Positions 8,831 to 19,671 are shown, counted from the first letter of the stretch. The stretch is 64,000 nt of DNA from Promethearchaeota archaeon (GCA_016840165.1 JAEOSU010000009.1:16331-80330); one strand, 5' to 3'. Notes: generated by a model not told the origin, from the letters alone. Numbers and translations are program-made.

Positions 8831-9982
8831 TTATTTTAGGGTAAATTTCTCATACTTAGATTCGCACGGATGGTTATCAGTAACCCAAAATTCCTTCTTT
8901 TGAGGTAAAACGATTATTGAACCTAAAGTTCCTGCAGCAGGACCATGCGTGCAAACTGTAAAATCATCTGGTTCCCTATTATCATGATCTCTTAAAATTT
9001 CTTTAATAATTTCAATGCTAATTTGTCCATGATACTTGTTCAGAAGTTCAATTTCTCTATTGTACCGCCTTATAGGGGATTCTATAGGACTTATATCCAT
9101 ATCATCCATTTTAAATCGAACATACTCTGGCAAATTAGCGTCTTTAAGCTCTTCTGACTGGTAATGGTTTGTGTGGGCTAGAATTCCGTTGTTAGGTCTA
9201 CGAATCGCATAACGAGTGCTTGTAGTCTCAATAACACAAGTGTCGCCTGAATTGTCCATTAAACCACAATGGAAGCCATTTGCTCGAGCAGGAAAATTAG
9301 ATATAAAATCAATGGCTTCTTGAGTTGTTGCGCAAGTTTCTAATGCTTCCTGTATGATGAATGTAGCGGGAACACCTTTTAATCTGAAATCTAGTGGTTG
9401 CTTTTTCCACGACCGACCAAAATTATACCCTATAGCTAAACCTTTCTCATTTAACCCCATATGACAACCAACTAGTGGATATTGTGTAAAATTCAAATTT
9501 TTATATCCATTATCTGGTCTTTCTTTACGGACTACCTGAAAAGGTTGGAGAACGTTAGGAAAATCATAATTTCTTCCAAAAATCATCGAATTATCAATCG
9601 TTGCCTCCGAATAGGCAAAAATCATTGAACAAGCGGGAACTGGGGGGTTTTTATATATTGATTTGGGATCACCAGACATAACCTCTATAAAATGACCACC
9701 ATAAATCAATCCTTTGCTTATACCAGCTGCTTTGCTCAGAGCATTCATCTTCTCATGCTGGTTGGGAAGGAGATGTGATAATGATTTTTTAATATTTCTT
9801 TTTCCCATTACACCTAGAGCAAATTTAATAATGGAAAGTGGTATCCATTTAGAAGTCACTTCAGAAAACATTTTTGAGTGTAAGACTGTATCAAATGTAG
9901 TATAAATTTTTTCTTTTAACTGTTCTCCTTGTTGAAAACCACGCTCAGCGGGATTTCCTTCTATCTTTATATAATCCACCAT
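8831..9982 (-). CDS. C45 family Ntn-hydrolase/acyltransferase (acyl-CoA:6-APA acyltransferase-like)
   Basis: Autoproteolytic Cys in ACSMIF, GRNYDF, GLNEKGLAI, HTNHY. Confidence 0.88.
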   Translation of the reverse strand: MVDYIKIEGNPAERGFQQGEQLKEKIYTTFDTVLHSKMFSEVTSKWIPLSIIKFALGVMGKRNIKKSLSHLLPNQHEKMNALSKAAGISKGLIYGGHFIEVMSGDPKSIYKNPPVPACSMIFAYSEATIDNSMIFGRNYDFPNVLQPFQVVRKERPDNGYKNLNFTQYPLVGCHMGLNEKGLAIGYNFGRSWKKQPLDFRLKGVPATFIIQEALETCATTQEAIDFISNFPARANGFHCGLMDNSGDTCVIETTSTRYAIRRPNNGILAHTNHYQSEELKDANLPEYVRFKMDDMDISPIESPIRRYNREIELLNKYHGQISIEIIKEILRDHDNREPDDFTVCTHGPAAGTLGSIIVLPQKKEFWVTDNHPCESKYEKFTLK

Positions 9983-12322: not shown

Positions 12323-12505
12323 TTACTCTTCTTCTTTTGAAGCTAAATCTTTTGCAAGCTCAACGCCTAAATCAAGAAAGTCTTTCATAGAGTTATAAAA
12401 TATATCTCCGATAAGTTCTCCATCTTCGTCAACCGACTCGAACTCATTTATTAACTCTTCTTTCCGTCGTTCTAACTCGAAATTTAGTTCTATTTCACTT
12501 CCCAT
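12323..12505 (-). CDS. Small acidic helical protein (last gene of the lipid cluster)
   Basis: 60 aa; GGAGG ribosome-binding site upstream; 17 bp after the preceding gene. Confidence 0.7.
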   Translation of the reverse strand: MGSEIELNFELERRKEELINEFESVDEDGELIGDIFYNSMKDFLDLGVELAKDLASKEEE

Positions 12506-12522
12506 TTATATCGTCCTCCCTT

Positions 12523-13218
12523 TTATTCTTCCATAGGTTGGATTTTGAGAGATTCAATAATATTGACAATATCTTCAGCAAGTTCATATCTTTGATCTCG
12601 ATATTTCTCTCGATTTAATCGTCTCTCTATTGGTAAAGGTGTTCCCACTTTAACTCTGATCCCTTGTGCATCAAACATATTTAATATCTTGGTCTTTTCG
12701 GTGTATATTGCAAGTGGAATAATTGGTGCTTCTCCCGCAACGGCAAACTTAATAATGCCTGCCATTGCTTTTATTTGGACATCTCTTTCCAATTTAGATT
12801 CTGGAGTCATTGCAACAAGATCCCCCACTTCATTTAAGTAATGGAATACCTTATCGATTGGTTCCGTATCTTCCTTATCTAATGTGCTTCGAAACATACC
12901 TAAAGATTTAAGAATCGGACCGTACATTTGATTTTTCATGAGTTTATGGTGAACCATGAAATGAATCCTTCTACCAGAAACTTGACTGATGATAAGCATA
13001 TCTCTTAATGCATTATCGCTTATAGTTGTTAAAATCGCTTTGCCCATTAATGGAACATTTTCTTTACCTTCAATTTTTAGGTCTGCTAAAGCAGAGAGCC
13101 CAAATGCACCAATACCCTTCACTGCCCCATAAAAAATATCTTCCATTAAATCCTTACTTATAAGCTTGTCTTTCCCCTTAGTTTCTTCTTCTACTGGCGT
13201 TTCTACATTTTCTTCCAT
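12523..13218 (-). CDS. PlsC/LPLAT-fold protein with degenerate catalytic motifs
   Basis: IEGKENVP..G.AIL, RIHFM, GDLVAMTPES, APIIPLAI, VKVGTP. HxxxxD is replaced by ISDNALRD and PEGTR by PESKL. Confidence 0.8.
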   Translation of the reverse strand: MEENVETPVEEETKGKDKLISKDLMEDIFYGAVKGIGAFGLSALADLKIEGKENVPLMGKAILTTISDNALRDMLIISQVSGRRIHFMVHHKLMKNQMYGPILKSLGMFRSTLDKEDTEPIDKVFHYLNEVGDLVAMTPESKLERDVQIKAMAGIIKFAVAGEAPIIPLAIYTEKTKILNMFDAQGIRVKVGTPLPIERRLNREKYRDQRYELAEDIVNIIESLKIQPMEE

Positions 13219-13232
13219 TTTTTTTACCTCAA

Positions 13233-13427
13233 TTATAATTTGTCTATAAATAAATTTACTTCCTCCATTCGCCTCTCATAATATTCCTTCAAATCTTTTT
13301 CAGAAACGAATGTTGGTATTACTTTTTCGGTGTATAAATCAAAAATCGTTGATAATTTCATTTTATGCTTGATATTATCAAAAAAATCTTCACCCATTTC
13401 TCTTAATTGTTTGATGAATTCTGCCAT
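13233..13427 (-). CDS. Small amphipathic-helix protein in the lipid cluster
   Basis: 64 aa; GAGGTG ribosome-binding site upstream; tight operon spacing. Confidence 0.7.
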   Translation of the reverse strand: MAEFIKQLREMGEDFFDNIKHKMKLSTIFDLYTEKVIPTFVSEKDLKEYYERRMEEVNLFIDKL

Positions 13428-13453
13428 TTCATATACACCTCTTAATTATTTAA

Positions 13454-14479
13454 TTATGTTAATTGATCCCACTTTCCACATCTTGAACCCCAGCGAGCAA
13501 TAATCTTATTGTCTTGTTCGGGCATTCTTACTTGTACAATCTCACAATTATTAGGACAGTCACCACAATGGAAAGTAGATGTTTTGAATTCGATATCCGA
13601 GACTTCCAATCCACGGAATACGGTTTCACTTCCGTGCTCTGTATAGTAATCTCTGACTAAAATTGCCATTCCTAGAGCACCCATCAAAACGTTATATTTT
13701 GGTACGATTACCTTGCATCCTAAGTGGCGCTCAAATGCTTGAATTATCCCTTTATTATATGAAACGCCACCTTGAAATACCACAGGTTCATCTAATTCCT
13801 TTCCCTTTCCTACATTATTCATATAGTTTCTTACTAAAGAATCGCACAATCCTGCAATGATATCTTCTTTTGAATAACCTGCGTTTTGTTTATGAATCAT
13901 ATCCGATTCTGCAAAGACTGTGCATCTCCCCGCAATACTCACGGGGTTTTTAGACTGTATAGCATAATCTCCAAAATCCTCGATAGGAATACCTAATCGT
14001 GCTGCTTGATGATCAAGAAAAGAACCCGTGCCTGCAGCACAAACCGAATTCATAGCAAAATCAACTATTATGCCATCCCGGAGGATAATAATTTTTGAAT
14101 CTTGTCCTCCAATTTCTAATATAGTCCTTACATCAGGATACATTGACTGGGTAGCAACCGCATGAGCAATTATTTCAGTTTTAGCTAAATCTCCACCTAC
14201 CACTGCTTTCGTTAAATAACGGGCTGAGCCCGTGGTTCCACAACATTTTATCGCATAATCATGGAGATTTGGATCCTCTTCTATTTTATCACGTAATTCT
14301 GACATTCCTGCTTTCGCAGAATCAATAGGAGAACCGCGATTACGCAAAAATACACTAGTAAGAACTTCTCCATTAATATCCATTAAAACGAATTTACAAG
14401 ATACGGATCCGATATCAATTCCTAAAAAAGCCTCTTTCTTTCCCTCTTCACTTTTTACTTTATTAGATACTTCAACCAT
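13454..14479 (-). CDS. ATP-dependent [4Fe-4S] activator, HgdC/BadF/BadG/BcrA/BcrD (ASKHA) family, with C-terminal Cys cluster
   Basis: GIDIGSVSCK, EIGGQDSK, MNSVCAAGTGSFLD, AGRCTVFAESD, FQGGV; tail FHCGDCPNNC...GSRC. Confidence 0.92.
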   Translation of the reverse strand: MVEVSNKVKSEEGKKEAFLGIDIGSVSCKFVLMDINGEVLTSVFLRNRGSPIDSAKAGMSELRDKIEEDPNLHDYAIKCCGTTGSARYLTKAVVGGDLAKTEIIAHAVATQSMYPDVRTILEIGGQDSKIIILRDGIIVDFAMNSVCAAGTGSFLDHQAARLGIPIEDFGDYAIQSKNPVSIAGRCTVFAESDMIHKQNAGYSKEDIIAGLCDSLVRNYMNNVGKGKELDEPVVFQGGVSYNKGIIQAFERHLGCKVIVPKYNVLMGALGMAILVRDYYTEHGSETVFRGLEVSDIEFKTSTFHCGDCPNNCEIVQVRMPEQDNKIIARWGSRCGKWDQLT

Positions 14480-14486
14480 TTCTTTT

Positions 14487-15674
14487 TCACTCCGCTTGAA
14501 TTAACTGAGCTATTTCGTTATAAAATTCCCCACCATATTGTGGATATATTTTCTTTTGGCCGTTTGCCATAAATTCTGGTGTACTTTTAATCTCTCTATC
14601 ACGTCTCGCTTCCAATAAATCATAAAATGCCTCTAATCTAGTTCGAAATCCTTCTTGACCGCTCTGCTCATCAAAAGAAAAATAAATTACTGGAAGGTCG
14701 TAAATTTTCTTGAGTTTATTGGTAATTATTGTTCGGGCTGTAACCTCAGGCATACAAGTGAAAGGGTACGAATGAATGAATCCATCGAATCCCGCATTTG
14801 CCTTATCAATATATTCGCCTAATACCCATACACATTCTCCGCCAATATCCATAGGCATATATGGTTTAGCCAAATGTTCAAGCCATTTGCGGTGATAATT
14901 CAAATGAAATTTATGGACAACCCAGTCATATAAACTCAAACTCTGGTGGACCTCGACTCCCATCTCACCTAATTTTCTTCGAATGTCAAGATTCACATAA
15001 GGTTCCAAGCTTATATGTATCTCACCAGAAAGACCAACTCTTAATGGGGTTCTCGATCTATCAATATCGATTGAATTGAAATCATCTTTAATAATTTTTT
15101 TAAAACTACGCAATTCCACTAAAGTGTTAGCCTTATCAAGTTTTTGTAATAATTCATTCACAACTCGTGTTGTGTCGCCTAAATTACGCTCATACGCACG
15201 AAATAAGCCTTCGGCGGTCTGAATATCATTTAATAACTTTGCTTTTTTCAAAAAGTAAATAACTGCTTTTATATATTTCGAATAGATAAATAAATCTTTT
15301 CGACCACTTACTTCTTGTAAGGTCTTAATCCAGTGAAATTCCAATAGATCTGCTTGATCTAATGGAATTACGCGAATATTTTTATATCCCATATCTCGTA
15401 AAATGCGTTCTTGGACACTTGCATAAAAACCGAAACGACATGGTCCGCAATCAATTGCCATTACAAGAGTATCAGCACCCTTTTTAATTGCACTAACAAA
15501 ATCACCAAGAGTAGCTTTAAACGGAAAACATACGAATTCAGGACTGTATTTTACTCCGATTTTAATCGCTTCACGATTTGTGGGATCGGGAAGGACAACA
15601 TCTAAATCTAATGCTGTGAATAATGTCTTGAAGGCGACCCAGTTAGGTCCCATGTTTGGAAAGGAAATTAGCAT
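14487..15674 (-). CDS. 2-hydroxyacyl-CoA dehydratase-family Fe-S subunit (PlsR-like)
   Basis: GVKYSPEFVCFPFK, GPCRFGFY, GLSGEI, GGE, PFTCMPE, FDEQSG..GFRTRLEAF. Confidence 0.85.
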   Translation of the reverse strand: MLISFPNMGPNWVAFKTLFTALDLDVVLPDPTNREAIKIGVKYSPEFVCFPFKATLGDFVSAIKKGADTLVMAIDCGPCRFGFYASVQERILRDMGYKNIRVIPLDQADLLEFHWIKTLQEVSGRKDLFIYSKYIKAVIYFLKKAKLLNDIQTAEGLFRAYERNLGDTTRVVNELLQKLDKANTLVELRSFKKIIKDDFNSIDIDRSRTPLRVGLSGEIHISLEPYVNLDIRRKLGEMGVEVHQSLSLYDWVVHKFHLNYHRKWLEHLAKPYMPMDIGGECVWVLGEYIDKANAGFDGFIHSYPFTCMPEVTARTIITNKLKKIYDLPVIYFSFDEQSGQEGFRTRLEAFYDLLEARRDREIKSTPEFMANGQKKIYPQYGGEFYNEIAQLIQAE

Positions 15675-15737
15675 TATTTATTCGTTTTTTGCGGGTGTCT
15701 TGCTTTTTACTTAACTATGTATTTTAATAAAAACAGT

Positions 15738-15750
15738 CTTATATAAAAAA
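15738..15750 (-). promoter_or_regulatory. Candidate internal TATA box for the second half of the lipid cluster
   Basis: Minus strand reads TTTTTTATATAAG about 65 bp upstream of the 15674 start, in a 180-bp gap. Confidence 0.35.
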
Positions 15751-15854
15751 TTACCCATTAACTTCAGAATCTCAAAAGTATGATAGCTTCTATTAAAATG
15801 TTATAATTTTTTTATTAAATTTAAGAATAAATCCAAGTCTTTTGAGGATAGTAA

Positions 15855-16928
15855 TTAAGTCGCTTCATAGAAATTAATTTTTGATTTCCATCTCGGTTCC
15901 AACCCAAGTTTTTTTCTCTTTCTACGAACCATTTCAACAAAACTTTCAATTCGGGTCATCATTCCTGCCTCTCCAGAATGTTCGTCCATAATTATTTCTA
16001 GAAATGGTAATCCAACCACTTTCATATCGCGCATTATTAGTTCGGAGATAAGACTGTCAGGACCGCATGCAAAACTTATTAGAAAGATTACCCCATCAAT
16101 CTCGTTTCGACCTTTAGTGAGAAAAAAGCGTATCGCCTGCATAATCTCTTCCTCATGTCGCCAATAATTTCTTAGAATTCCTCCTCTAGGATTGACAATA
16201 ACAGGTTTTTTAAACAAATATTCTGGGAGATTTTCGATAGTAAGTACTTCCACACCTTGGTTATGCAACTTTTTAATAAAATCCAAATTGATGAAGGTAT
16301 CAAATATATTATAGGCATGTCCAAGTAATAAAAAGCGGATATCCCCTTGTACTTTCTTTTTTGGTAATTTAAAGGGTAAACTACGTTGAACGAGACGTAA
16401 GGCATGATTCACAGAGCCCCCCTCTCGTAAAAACCTGTGATAATCATCAAAATAGGTTTGCGCTTTATTATATGCGTCGAGAGATGCATTTTGTCCCTTT
16501 CCCAATTGTTTTCCAAGTTCTATTGCAGATGTAGAAATGGGAAAATCTTTTACATTTACTTCAAAATTCAAAATTTTTGGTATAGGCAAGATTTTGATTA
16601 CATCGGGTAATGATAAAAACTTAGGACAAAAGTAGGATTCTGGAACTTCAGAAACATATCGTGGGACAAAAATAAAATCTAAATCAGGATTTGCTTCAAC
16701 TAATTTGAGAACTTGACCATAATAAATTTTTACGGGAATACACAATTCTCCAAATCCATGTGTAACTCCTTCCTCAACAATTTTTTTGTTTGTAGGAGGA
16801 CTGAGTACGATCTCTGCATCTAATTCTTCCAATAATTTTTTCCAAAAAGGATAGTAACGATAATAATGAAGAGCTCTTGGAATTCCGACTTTATATCGCT
16901 TTTTAACACCAATATTACTTAAAGCCAT
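15855..16928 (-). CDS. DUF2229-type CoA-activase-associated Fe-S subunit (like the PlsA/Ger reductase domain)
   Basis: VGIPRALHYYRYYPFW, VLSPPTNKK, ELCIPVK, FCPKF, LLGHAYN, SFACGPDS, DEHSGEAG..TRIESF. Confidence 0.85.
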   Translation of the reverse strand: MALSNIGVKKRYKVGIPRALHYYRYYPFWKKLLEELDAEIVLSPPTNKKIVEEGVTHGFGELCIPVKIYYGQVLKLVEANPDLDFIFVPRYVSEVPESYFCPKFLSLPDVIKILPIPKILNFEVNVKDFPISTSAIELGKQLGKGQNASLDAYNKAQTYFDDYHRFLREGGSVNHALRLVQRSLPFKLPKKKVQGDIRFLLLGHAYNIFDTFINLDFIKKLHNQGVEVLTIENLPEYLFKKPVIVNPRGGILRNYWRHEEEIMQAIRFFLTKGRNEIDGVIFLISFACGPDSLISELIMRDMKVVGLPFLEIIMDEHSGEAGMMTRIESFVEMVRRKRKKLGLEPRWKSKINFYEAT

Positions 16929-16948
16929 CGCAAGAGTCCTTTTGCTAA

Positions 16949-18619
16949 TTATGCGTCCGGAGTATCATAGAGCATTAAGTCTTTAATTTGAGCCATCATA
17001 TTATCCGTTAACCGTTTCAGTTCTTCGTAATCAGGCATAGGTTTACCCCAATATTTTTTATGTTCTAAGAAAACTGGTCCGGCTTTGAATATATTACCTT
17101 TGTAGAAATTTATGTTCTTTGCATGTTTCGGATAAGTATTTTCAGTACCAGTGACACCAACTAACACGATCGGTACTTGAGCTTCAATTGCCAACCGTAT
17201 TGCCCCCGTATGAGCATCCAATAACTCGCCATTACCAGGATTTGTTGTTCCCTCTGGATAGATGGTTACTATTTGCCCTTTACTAAGTAAATATCTAGCA
17301 TAATTAAATGAATCCACATCGTGGGCTCCTCTTCTTAATGGAAAGGCAAAATGGGTTCTTACCCATGCATTTACTACAGGGATTTGAAATAAGGACTGCT
17401 TAGACATTTGCCAAATTGGTCTTTTCTTATGAATTCCAAAAGCAGTTGCGAGCATAATTACATCCCATTCAGAATTGTGATTCGTACAGAGTATAAATGC
17501 CCCTTCATCAGGGATGTTTTTCTCCCAATCTATGACACGGTAGGGAGCCATAATATCACACCACCTATTCACTACCTGAGCCGAAAACATATATATAGTC
17601 TCTTTAAATTTCCAATCAATCTTCAATTCCTCTAAACTTCTAATTAATGCATACCATGAATCATCAATCAATTGTAGTGTTCCTTTCAATAAATCCTTTC
17701 CATATGTTTTCAGATTAAATTTTGACTTCTGTTCAACATCTTCTGGTGATCCAATCGAAAGCTCCTCCTGTGGTTTTCCATAAATCCCTTGCCTTAATTC
17801 ATATATTACTGTTCTTAATTCATTGGTCAATCTCCTTATGTCATCATATGACATCTTATCAACATCGTATTTGTCATAGTATATAGGTTCTCCTACTCGC
17901 GCGATTACTTGAGTTGGTTTCATCACTAATTTTCCTTTTGGTAATGCATTCTGCGAACCAATTATTGCCATTGGGACAATAGGGCAATCCATCTCTAAAG
18001 CTAAACGCACTGCTCCTGTCTTGAATTCACCGATATTCTCATCGTGGGCGCGAGTTCCTTCTGGAAAAATACCGACTACTTCACCTTCACTTAATAAATC
18101 CTTTGCATATTGCCAACCAAGTGTTGGATTCTCTCGATCTAATTTAAATGCACTTAAATTAGTAAATAAAGTTCTAACTATAGGGGTCTTGAAATTATCT
18201 AATTTACTCATCCAATGAATATGGCGATGCATGGCTGCTCCACAGAAAAACGGGTCCAAATGACTGTTATGAGTACTTACGAGAATAACGGGGCCCCATT
18301 CTGGAAAGAGGTTCTTCTTTGGATATTCGGCTTTGAAGTTCCAAAACATCCTAGCTGCAAGTTTAACATATATATATGCCGCCCACCATTGAAATCTCTT
18401 TTCTAAGTGAGTGAGATTCAACCGCTCGATAATATCCCGGTAGATATTATTGATTGAGTCGATTGGATTGTATTTTAAAAGCTTATAGAGAACATTTTCA
18501 TGCGTTTTATCCAGCTTCAAATCTCCTTTAAGTTTTTCCTCTATTATTCTTTCTGGCTCGTAGTCATAGTCCTTTGAGACGACTTGCTTTGGTTTTTGCG
18601 TTTGTTTTTCGAGTTCCAT
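16949..18619 (-). CDS. Tandem double PlsC-type (lysophospholipid/glycerol-phosphate) acyltransferase
   Basis: Domain 1 has THNSHLD and IFPEGTR; domain 2 has NHNSEWD and IYPEGTT. Both keep HxxxxD. Confidence 0.92.
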   Translation of the reverse strand: MELEKQTQKPKQVVSKDYDYEPERIIEEKLKGDLKLDKTHENVLYKLLKYNPIDSINNIYRDIIERLNLTHLEKRFQWWAAYIYVKLAARMFWNFKAEYPKKNLFPEWGPVILVSTHNSHLDPFFCGAAMHRHIHWMSKLDNFKTPIVRTLFTNLSAFKLDRENPTLGWQYAKDLLSEGEVVGIFPEGTRAHDENIGEFKTGAVRLALEMDCPIVPMAIIGSQNALPKGKLVMKPTQVIARVGEPIYYDKYDVDKMSYDDIRRLTNELRTVIYELRQGIYGKPQEELSIGSPEDVEQKSKFNLKTYGKDLLKGTLQLIDDSWYALIRSLEELKIDWKFKETIYMFSAQVVNRWCDIMAPYRVIDWEKNIPDEGAFILCTNHNSEWDVIMLATAFGIHKKRPIWQMSKQSLFQIPVVNAWVRTHFAFPLRRGAHDVDSFNYARYLLSKGQIVTIYPEGTTNPGNGELLDAHTGAIRLAIEAQVPIVLVGVTGTENTYPKHAKNINFYKGNIFKAGPVFLEHKKYWGKPMPDYEELKRLTDNMMAQIKDLMLYDTPDA

Positions 18620-18915
18620 AATTTCTCAACTCTACGAATTATTAAAAAAAGGGCTAAAATTTAATAAAGTCCCTTTTCAAGTGTAATTATCTTTACTTAA
18701 AGATCCTTTTGTTTTTATATTTATTCATTTAATTAATATGCAATTAAGTATGATACCTAGATTGCTAAAATGGAAGGTCTAAGGCTATTTTTTAGTATTA
18801 TTTCTTTAATTTCAAAAAAGGAAGAATGTCTATTCCACTTGAAGATCTCATTCTTTAATTTATATATTTCAGATAAAATTATTTTCCATCAGGAATTAAT
18901 TTTAAGAATTTGATT

Positions 18916-19671
18916 TTATTTAGAATTAGATGGCTTTTTTTGTTCTACCAATCCTAAAAGTTCATCCAATGATTCAACCAAAACTTCTGGGCTGGATTCA
19001 GCTAATGTTTGTTTACTACTTACACCACTTGCTATGCCAACCGTCCATACTCCTGCTTCTTTGCCCGATATGATATCAGAAGGCATGTCTCCGATCATGA
19101 TGAATTCTTTTAATTTAGTTGATTTATAACTTTCAAGAACCGGAGTTAAAGCATTAGGATCGGGTTTTAGTGCAGGTAATAGATCTGCCCCATATACTCC
19201 TTTAAATAAATGTTCGATATTTTCCTTCTCGAGATGTTCCAATACATTTCTGGTTTGATTATGTGAAACGATAAATAAATCGAAAGATTTCTTAAGTTTT
19301 TTCAATATTTCTATGCAATTTGGATAAAATGGAGCCTCTTTCGCATAAGTCAAATATTTGGTGAAAATTCTAACAGCTATTTCTAATTTCTTAAAAAATG
19401 TAAGTGATTTTAAGGATGTTATGTACTCAAACATATCATACGATTCAAGCAGGATTTTAGGAAGAGGATATCCTTGAATAGTTTCCATTAAAGCTCCTAT
19501 TTCTTCTATTGTATTGCTGATATCAGCATTAATATTTTTTTTTTGATATACTTCCTCTATTGATTTTTGCAGCGGTTCTCTAATATCTAGAAGTGTACCA
19601 TCAAAATCAAAAATAATACCTTTAATCGCTCCTGTTTGGAGCCGTTTTAATAGTTGGTTGTCAGCGGACAT
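18916..19671 (-). CDS. HAD-superfamily phosphatase (Gph-like, C1 cap)
   Basis: FDFDGTL, IVSHN, KPDP, MIGDMPSDI. Confidence 0.9.
   Translation of the reverse strand: MSADNQLLKRLQTGAIKGIIFDFDGTLLDIREPLQKSIEEVYQKKNINADISNTIEEIGALMETIQGYPLPKILLESYDMFEYITSLKSLTFFKKLEIAVRIFTKYLTYAKEAPFYPNCIEILKKLKKSFDLFIVSHNQTRNVLEHLEKENIEHLFKGVYGADLLPALKPDPNALTPVLESYKSTKLKEFIMIGDMPSDIISGKEAGVWTVGIASGVSSKQTLAESSPEVLVESLDELLGLVEQKKPSNSK

Follow-up and report, generated by a model that had tools for sequence, protein, structure and literature searches.

Eight co-oriented genes of a Promethearchaeota archaeon, an Asgard of the Lokiarchaeia type, bring acyltransferases of the PlsC family together with the three components of an ATP-driven iron-sulfur (Fe-S) reductase. 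They lie on the minus strand at positions 12323-19671 of a 64,000-nucleotide stretch (GCA_016840165.1, JAEOSU010000009.1:16331-80330; hereafter the window), and the reductase is built from the same parts as PlsA/PlsR and Ger, which turn ester bonds of glycerolipids into ether bonds. The new finding is that the coupling of PlsC-family domains to a PlsA/Ger-like Fe-S reductase extends across the host's class and takes in all such domains of the host genome. Also new is a PlsC-fold partner, catalytically dead as judged from its motifs, that is conserved with the cluster, and the module differs from the fused Ger homologs of earlier reports. An initial annotation of this DNA had listed the eight genes with their domains and coordinates. 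The coordinates match exactly, and the domain calls are borne out by open reading frames (ORFs) and by Pfam and NCBIfam profile searches of the window proteins.

Layout of the cluster

The first gene in transcription order (18916..19671) encodes a HAD-IA family phosphatase of 251 amino acids (aa) (Pfam HAD_2, expectation value (E) 1.6e-27). It is followed by an AT-rich spacer of 296 bp (18620..18915), in which reading of the sequence revealed no ORF of at least 50 aa and which is possibly a promoter region. The next gene (16949..18619) encodes a 556-aa tandem PlsC/LPLAT acyltransferase with two PF01553 domains (E 3.9e-53). The reductase genes are named here Red1, Red2 and ACT, following the Act/Red naming of PMC12838417. 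Red1 (15855..16928) is a DUF2229 subunit of 357 aa (E 1.9e-44) and Red2 (14487..15674) a PlsR-like second reductase subunit of 395 aa; another AT-rich spacer, of 180 bp and likewise read in sequence, separates their genes (15675..15854). ACT (13454..14479; 341 aa; BcrAD_BadFG, E 8e-47) is an ATP-dependent electron-transfer activase of the Act2 type. The last three genes encode a 64-aa protein without a Pfam family (13233..13427), a 231-aa PlsC-fold protein that lacks the catalytic histidine (hereafter His-less PlsC; 12523..13218; weak PF01553 match, E 7.4e-8), and a very acidic 60-aa protein of no family, with a net charge of -14 (12323..12505).

Five of the intergenic gaps are short (20, 7, 26, 14 and 17 bp), as expected from the range of 7-26 bp given initially for several of them; the other two are the spacers of 296 and 180 bp. 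Given these long, AT-rich gaps, the cluster may consist of up to three transcription units. In one sediment metatranscriptome, contigs of 125-260 nucleotides lie on the PlsC and Red2 genes at 93-100% identity and low depth, which is a weak hint of expression at most since DNA carry-over is possible; gaps in their coverage carry no meaning. The host genome (3.6 Mb, 99.7% complete) contains a single DUF2229 module, namely this cluster. Near-identical homologs of its proteins are labelled Promethearchaeota or Lokiarchaeota archaeon, and a word-index search at near lengths returned close Asgard relatives only.

The reductase module

PlsA-type enzymes convert an ester to a vinyl ether in C. perfringens, E. 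faecalis, L. cremoris and B. longum (PMC12838417). Ger, described from T. maritima and D. alkenivorans, acts only anaerobically and converts the sn-1 ester to an alkyl ether (PMC13159169). ACT, Red1 and Red2 are colinear, over their full length, with the Act2, Red1 and Red2 segments of at least 44 bacterial fused proteins of ~1400 aa, which contain two BcrAD_BadFG domains, one DUF2229 domain and HGD-D pieces, an architecture known from publications on Ger and on single-gene PlsA (PMC13159169, PMC12838417). Typical E-values against these proteins are 1e-75 to 1e-84 for ACT, 1e-30 to 1e-42 for Red1 and 1e-20 to 1e-34 for Red2. Residues 13-340 of Red1 share ~30% identity with the Red1 region, residues 2-361 of Red2 align with the C-terminal Red2 region, and ACT is 40-43% identical to Act2, its C-terminal tail included.

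The predicted Fe-S ligands are likewise conserved. Red1 keeps C63, C101 and C288 without exception in 37 orthologs, Red2 keeps C49, C79 and C307 in the orthologs of that subunit, likewise without exception, and all six cysteines have counterparts in the fused proteins of Listeria and Collinsella. The two cysteines of ACT that would bridge a [4Fe-4S] cluster, C147 and C186, are invariant and align with those of the Listeria and Collinsella Act domains. The activator tail CxxCxxxC...RC pointed out in the initial annotation is present as C305-x2-C308-x3-C312...R-C334 and invariant in 32 orthologs. The same CxxCxxxC...C tail occurs in Act2 of the fused proteins and is absent from Act1.

Similarity to 2-hydroxyacyl-CoA dehydratases is largely confined to the activator. 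Red1 consists of DUF2229 and a C-terminal HGD-D piece, and Red2 of an N-terminal DUF2229 piece and a C-terminal HGD-D piece. The HGD-D scores (27.1 and 23.3 bits) fall under the Pfam cut-off of 28.4 and cover profile positions 282-341 only. HadB matches Red1 at E 9.6e-4 over ~60 C-terminal residues only, and the double-cubane cluster protein (DCCP) 7YYL shows marginal similarity over a stretch of the same size (range for HadB/DCCP, E 1e-3 to 1e-2). Red2 has no match in the PDB. ACT, in contrast, scores 191 bits with TIGR00241 and matches the dehydratase activators HadI (4EHT, 1.7e-37) and HgdC (1HUX, 1.5e-33); it is the only one of the three that strongly resembles proteins of the dehydratase systems. 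No gene for a coenzyme A (CoA)-transferase or 2-hydroxy-acid dehydrogenase partner was found among the eight genes or in their immediate flanks. A grouping of the subunits with amino-acid-fermentation dehydratases had been named initially as an outcome that would speak against a lipid function. With so marginal a HadB/DCCP match (HadB E 1e-3, ~60 residues) and a Red2 without a PDB match, they do not group in this way.

Acyltransferases and accompanying proteins

The 556-aa protein scores 160 bits with TIGR00530, the curated domain model for 1-acylglycerol-3-phosphate acyltransferases, whose cut-off is 103. Both of its domains have the HX4D motif (HNSHLD in domain 1, HNSEWD in domain 2) and a motif III (FPEGTR and YPEGTT, respectively), and judged from these motifs both are apparently active. 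Among solved structures, T. maritima PlsC matches best (5KYM, E 5.8e-13). The 556-aa protein shows no hydrophobic stretch of the kind expected for a membrane-spanning helix.

In the 231-aa protein, HX4D is replaced by S-x4..D (ISDNALRD) and EGTR by PESK. Without the catalytic histidine, it is probably non-catalytic. Loss of this residue is common to the orthologs checked, to the second PlsC gene of family f3 (families of the phylum sample are numbered, and are introduced below), and to the third domain of the two triple-PlsC fusions examined, from f5 and f7. A complex prediction for His-less PlsC, Red1 and Red2 scored 0.00, was run without controls, and is evidence neither way.

All three PF01553 domains of the 99.7%-complete host genome sit within the cluster. 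The acyltransferases flanking the reductase had been taken initially as the main clue to function, and this clue holds: the linkage covers every PlsC-family domain of the genome.

The HAD phosphatase scores under every NCBIfam equivalog cut-off and may be regarded as a candidate lipid-phosphate or glycerol-phosphate phosphatase. A homolog adjoins the cluster in f1, f2 and f5-f7, with a 488-502-aa form in f5-f7, and none does so in f3. Orthologs of the 64-aa protein (49-93% identity) occupy the same position in the f1 genera and in f2; homologs of the 60-aa protein (38-83% identity) were found in same-genus loci only.

Conservation of the linkage across Asgard families

Regions of ~19 kb around Red1 orthologs were compared for 40 genomes drawn from a sample of 400 genomes of the phylum. 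In each of the seven families sampled from the class (f1-f7), PlsC genes adjoin the module, despite gene fissions and fusions. In f1 (genera g1, g2, g10 and g11) and f2, the order is HAD, PlsC, Red1, Red2, ACT, 64-aa protein and His-less PlsC, although in f2 two genes take the place of the tandem PlsC. The tandem PlsC is likewise split in f3, a family with closed genomes of 4.3-6.0 Mb, where two PlsC genes (one active by its motifs, one His-less) are followed by Red1, Red2 and ACT. Families f5-f7 represent other orders of the class; there, a triple-PlsC fusion of 872-876 aa with a His-less third domain is followed by the 488-502-aa HAD protein, Red1, Red2 and ACT. Across the 400 genomes, PF01553 occurs in f1-f7 and f14-f17, and strong Red1 orthologs in f1-f7. 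These distributions indicate that the coupling is a class-level and not a phylum-level trait. Conservation of the linkage across Asgard archaea had been suggested initially as a check, and unconserved synteny named as a further outcome that would speak against a lipid function; the linkage is conserved throughout the class, and this outcome did not occur. Its conservation there at 40-50% identity argues for an important role.

Several loci carry additional genes. Relatives (L037, L038, L069, L072, L045 and L046) have a hotspot of insertion in the spacer that separates Red1 from Red2, with inserts of 0.2 to at least 4 kb, whole paralog modules, or a fused Act-Act-Red1 gene. Unrelated genes, such as one for a metallo-beta-lactamase-fold protein and unknowns, are also found there. 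The same spacer is a spot where assemblies break: most contigs of metagenome-assembled genomes stop 150-1350 nucleotides downstream of Red1, and the cluster halves lie on separate contigs in G179 (C82) and G200 (C59). In f7, a LarA-family gene (Lar_N and LarA_C; nickel-pincer 2-hydroxy-acid racemase family) lies between the triple-PlsC and HAD genes (L057:6111-7487, +). The f6 clusters (L058 and L059) have a gap of matching size, and the host genome has two LarA-like genes elsewhere (C27 and C74). Speculatively, the f7 protein might interconvert glycerol-phosphate enantiomers.

The immediate flanks of the window cluster hold genes for a GNAT protein, a DUF2207-like protein, an Ntn hydrolase and MFS transporters. 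The Ntn hydrolase (383 aa; window 8831-9982, minus strand; ~2.3 kb from the cluster) belongs to the AAT/choloylglycine-hydrolase family of linear amide hydrolases (PF03417, 7.1e-31), and a protein of this type is also encoded close to the cluster in one same-genus locus (L034).

Phylogeny of Red1 and relation to fused Ger homologs

Trees of the Red1 unit were rooted on Red2 paralogs and computed with FastTree (258 rows) and with IQ-TREE under LG+C20 (a random subsample of 85 rows), leaving out the near-identical relatives P0061-P0180 and fragments shorter than 250 aa. Fused proteins of Listeria monocytogenes, Collinsella, Fusobacterium and Paraclostridium, which share the architecture of PlsA/Ger, served as anchors in place of the experimentally verified PlsA/Ger sequences. 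Listeria is cited for active orthologs (PMC9702350). The fused proteins with two activase domains (Act1-Act2-Red1[-Red2]), at least 40 in number and including all four anchors, form a clade with a support of 98-99. Window Red1 falls outside it. All PlsC-linked Lokiarchaeial Red1 proteins form a separate clade (support 99) among stand-alone split forms, and since branching within this clade tracks genome families, it fits long vertical retention. In an exhaustive representative search, the nearest non-Asgard relatives of Red1 were split proteins of 300-350 aa and Red1-Red2 fusions of ~700 aa, not the 1400-aa fused forms. Judged from these sequences, the module has the same parts as PlsA/PlsR/Ger, yet is not a member of the PlsA/Ger clade. 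The initial statement that PlsA/PlsR and Ger are built from these domain types is borne out by the colinear domains and retained cysteines; a place of Red1 within the PlsA/Ger clade is not supported.

In a second Lokiarchaeial module, an 803-837-aa fusion of FAD_binding_4 (VAO-type) and Red1 (L067:8951-11371, -; L069:8963-11401, -; L038:5128-7641, -; protein P0001) is accompanied by a separate activase of 343 aa and by a Red2 paralog of 441-450 aa. The fusion nests inside the PlsC-linked Red1 clade, and the module is absent from the host genome. A resemblance of its FAD domain to alkyl-DHAP synthase was considered and rejected, as cytokinin dehydrogenase and DprE1 head its PDB matches and AGPS reaches only 3.8e-5.

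Ger homologs have been reported in Lokiarchaeota and Heimdallarchaeota on the basis of DIAMOND matches that had to cover at least 30% of the T. maritima enzyme, a protein of ~1400 aa (PMC13159169). The 357-aa subunit could not have passed this filter. Separate fused genes do occur in these archaea. A closed f3 genome has one of 1482 aa with the order Act-Act-Red1-Red2 (L162:4081-8529, G135:C1), a type of gene absent from the host genome, and some Lokiarchaeia have Act-Act-Red1 genes of 865-985 aa (L038:9402-12335, L039:10419-13376 and L040:4341-6938) that fall inside the bacterial fused clade. Given the coverage filter and these separate genes, the published Asgard homologs are probably the fused genes of ~1480 or 865-985 aa and not the split cluster. 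A 458-aa BAR-domain protein (PF03114, E 1.1e-14) is encoded ~2 kb from the fused PlsA/Ger-type gene of the closed f3 genome (L162:10682-12058, -). PlsC and PlsY have also been reported in Lokiarchaeota (PMC6737245). With both reports in print, the novelty is narrower than the initial annotation had claimed; full-text searches of the literature found no description of this PlsC-reductase linkage.

Split modules of bacteria

The initial annotation had cautioned that split three-gene versions of the module occur in bacteria without a known function. This caution is apt, as window Red1 sits in that subfamily and no lipid context was seen there. In 80 bacterial split loci (L082-L161), mostly of Bacillota anaerobes, the gene order is Red1-Red2-ACT as in the window. 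A PlsC gene is nearby in one of the 80, and the commonest neighbours are sporulation genes. In spore-forming Bacillota, the module often lies just downstream of spoIIA/sigF, spoVAD/AE or gerA and before genes for pyridoxal phosphate enzymes or the diaminopimelate pathway, which hints at a sporulation-linked role for this uncharacterised subfamily. No lipid clue was found in the neighbourhoods of split modules on three metagenomic contigs, in the 80 named bacterial loci or in Asgard family f18, where the split modules sit by an MttB/corrinoid operon.

Lipid genes elsewhere in the genome

The host genome encodes the geranylgeranylglyceryl phosphate (GGGP) synthase PcrB (E 2.7e-50), as do 129 of the 134 genomes of its family. 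Replacement of GGGP synthase by the cluster was therefore rejected for this genome. An acyl or ether lipid, if made, would supplement the archaeal lipids instead of replacing them, and the bacterial-type or chimeric lipids envisaged initially are to be read in this narrower sense. The genome also encodes 15 AMP-binding ligases. Its single PlsY (G3P_acyltransf, E 2.6e-36; G000:C86:6431-7639, +) lies outside the window and is fused to a C-terminal membrane domain with a GDxxGKxxG...SxEG motif, which by eye resembles the CdsA, dolichol-kinase or phytol-kinase families.

GGGP synthase is not distributed evenly over the 400-genome sample. It was not detected in the f3 genera g18, g20 and g21 (0/8 genomes, two of them closed), in f18 (0/12) or in f25 (0/5), and was found in 4/31 genomes of f13, mostly as weak hits. 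Families f14-f17 gave weak hits only, and some GGGP-synthase-poor lineages carry split Red modules. The result for g18, g20 and g21 agrees with the gap published for MK-D1 (PMC11316595). In such Lokiarchaeia, the cluster might supply the missing first ether bond by PlsC acylation followed by ATP-driven ester reduction instead of prenyl transfer, although we regard this as a long shot. If true, an acyl ester would be an intermediate on the way to ether lipids in the archaea closest to eukaryotes, a working bridge over the lipid divide, and in the host genome, which has GGGP synthase, the same machinery would make an extra (chimeric or alkyl) ether lipid.

Proposed function and alternatives

We propose, at a probability of roughly 0.45, that the cluster is a self-contained module for converting acyl lipids to ether lipids. 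The tandem PlsC would esterify acyl chains onto an acceptor of the glycerol-phosphate type, be it glycerol 3-phosphate, glycerol 1-phosphate, a lyso-lipid or GGGP, and acyl-CoA is the likely donor because of the 15 AMP-binding ligases. The HAD phosphatase may take off a phosphate. ACT, probably a homodimer bridging a [4Fe-4S] cluster, would spend ATP to drive a low-potential electron into Red1/Red2, a putative heterodimer with a three-cysteine Fe-S site in each subunit. Like PlsA/PlsR and Ger, Red1/Red2 would then reduce the ester carbonyl in a step of the ketyl-radical type, giving either a plasmalogen-like vinyl ether or an alkyl ether. His-less PlsC would probably hold or pass on the acyl-lipid. 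A 3-hydroxyacyl-CoA dehydrogenase gene, divergent and beside Red1 in a closed genome of the host's family (L040:7729-8922, +), counts in favour of this proposal; the half of the cluster with Red2, ACT and His-less PlsC was not found in that genome. The sequences show the domain identities, the colinear homology, the conserved cluster ligands and the class-wide linkage, while the substrate, the ester-to-ether chemistry, the parts assigned to the HAD protein and to His-less PlsC, and any membrane role are inferred.

A number of observations weigh against an acyl-to-ether function. Red1 branches among split forms, outside the PlsA/Ger-architecture clade, in trees whose anchors match the verified enzymes in architecture, and the split modules of bacteria have sporulation genes as commonest neighbours and almost never a PlsC gene. 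Given that subfamily and the single PlsC-linked locus in 80, an ester-to-ether reaction is plausible as an inference. Within the phylum, f12, f13 and f18 carry weaker split paralogs without PlsC (f13 and f18 being the families that count here), and f14-f17 have PlsC without the module. A clear membrane-spanning segment is lacking in all eight proteins. The host keeps GGGP synthase, and the only lipid analysis of a cultured relative, the MK-D1 co-culture, reported isoprenoid chains only (PMC11316595), although the method used may miss ester lipids (PMC13400652). Finally, the LarA gene in the f7 cluster could indicate 2-hydroxy-acid chemistry.

This last observation would suit a reductase that works upstream, on the acyl donor: Red1/Red2/ACT might, for instance, use ketyl-radical chemistry to reduce or dehydrate a (2-hydroxy)acyl-CoA, after which PlsC would transfer the unusual acyl group to an acceptor. 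The founders of the superfamily are 2-hydroxyacyl-CoA dehydratases and benzoyl-CoA reductases, whose activators ACT strongly matches, and a donor-modifying enzyme would agree with the LarA gene and the f6 gap, the many AMP-binding ligases, the soluble appearance of all cluster proteins, and the fact that a lipid substrate is not demonstrated for the split subfamily. However, Red1 and Red2 match HadB/DCCP marginally and over ~60 residues, HGD-D stays under its cut-off, the cluster lacks a CoA-transferase gene, and lipid ester reductases are by far the nearest characterised relatives. We therefore consider action on the donor unlikely. Retention of GGGP synthase in the host and its family, the isoprenoid chains of MK-D1 and the short, low-depth RNA contigs are compatible with a more modest task in which the cluster remodels or salvages lipids while the main membrane stays canonically archaeal. 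The reductase would then make a minor or conditional ether, for stress, signalling or storage, in keeping with bacterial plasmalogens, which are often minor components (PMC13400652). Such remodelling overlaps with the acyl-to-ether proposal, from which it differs in quantity and not in chemistry, and the class-wide conservation speaks for something more important; as a separate explanation it is doubtful, and so is its corollary that PlsC re-acylates lyso-lipids or acylates head groups or GGGP-type intermediates.

The reductase might instead act on a non-lipid substrate, for instance a small molecule as a DCCP-like ATP-driven Fe-S enzyme, with the PlsC-fold proteins serving outside glycerolipid metabolism. 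The unrelated contexts of the split modules in Bacillota (sporulation genes) and f18 (the MttB/corrinoid operon), the marginal similarity to 7YYL and the lack of a membrane protein in the cluster would all be in line with this. It is nevertheless improbable, as the PlsC domains stay with the module through fusions and fissions in seven families, every PlsC-family domain of the genome sits in the cluster, and the tandem PlsC passes the curated acyltransferase model.

The ability or inability of Asgard archaea to make fatty-acid-type or chimeric glycerolipids is central to the question of how an archaeal host could have gained the bacterial-type membranes of eukaryotes. Earlier work reported PlsC, PlsY and Ger homologs as scattered genes; an argument from mere gene presence now becomes one about a single defined operon of six to eight genes. 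For the archaea most closely related to eukaryotes, the cluster offers a route to non-canonical lipids that can be tested but is as yet unproven. The split DUF2229 subfamily of anaerobic bacteria, large and uncharacterised, gains its first functional lead.

Comparison with known systems

The window module shares its building blocks (BcrAD_BadFG, DUF2229 Red1 and PlsR-like Red2) with PlsA/PlsR of C. perfringens (CPE1194-CPE1195) and with the single-gene PlsA of E. faecalis, L. cremoris and B. longum. These systems have two activases, whereas the window module has one, in three separate genes ordered Red1-Red2-ACT. Identity to PlsA/PlsR-type proteins is ~30% for Red1 and ~25% for Red2, and the activity of the window proteins is a prediction. 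Linkage to PlsC is a feature of the window module and was not seen beside the PlsA-type genes of Listeria, Collinsella and Paraclostridium. Ger (T. maritima Tmari_0479; D. alkenivorans SHJ90043) has the same domain types in the arrangement BBDHDDH, that is, Act1-Act2-Red1-Red2 (PMC13159169). Its 'BBD' core, two activases fused to Red1, is conserved in all known alkyl-ether producers (PMC13159169). The window module lacks this fusion, its single 341-aa activase gene lying apart from Red1, downstream of Red2.

HadBC/HadI, HgdAB/HgdC and DCCP with its activase belong to the same ketyl-radical Fe-S superfamily and receive electrons from a homologous, ATP-driven ASKHA activator (E 1e-33 to 1e-37). 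They differ from the window module in that the likeness of Red1/Red2 to HadB and DCCP is confined to ~60 C-terminal residues, and in the missing CoA-transferase. The split modules of Monoglobus pectinilyticus (WP_102365312, WP_102365311 and WP_102365310), Pelotomaculum, Moorella and Syntrophomonas have the same gene order and sizes as the window module at 35-40% identity. Bacterial split modules share a broad region of the tree with window Red1 and differ in their PlsC linkage, present in only 1/80, and, unlike the window cluster, they often lie by sigF, spoVA or gerA genes.

Bacterial PlsC, represented by the monotopic T. maritima enzyme (5KYM), has HX4D and EGTR motifs and no classical membrane-spanning helix, as does the tandem PlsC of the window. 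Unlike bacterial PlsC, the window system is predicted to have two active domains in one chain, and it is accompanied by a conserved His-less third domain or protein.

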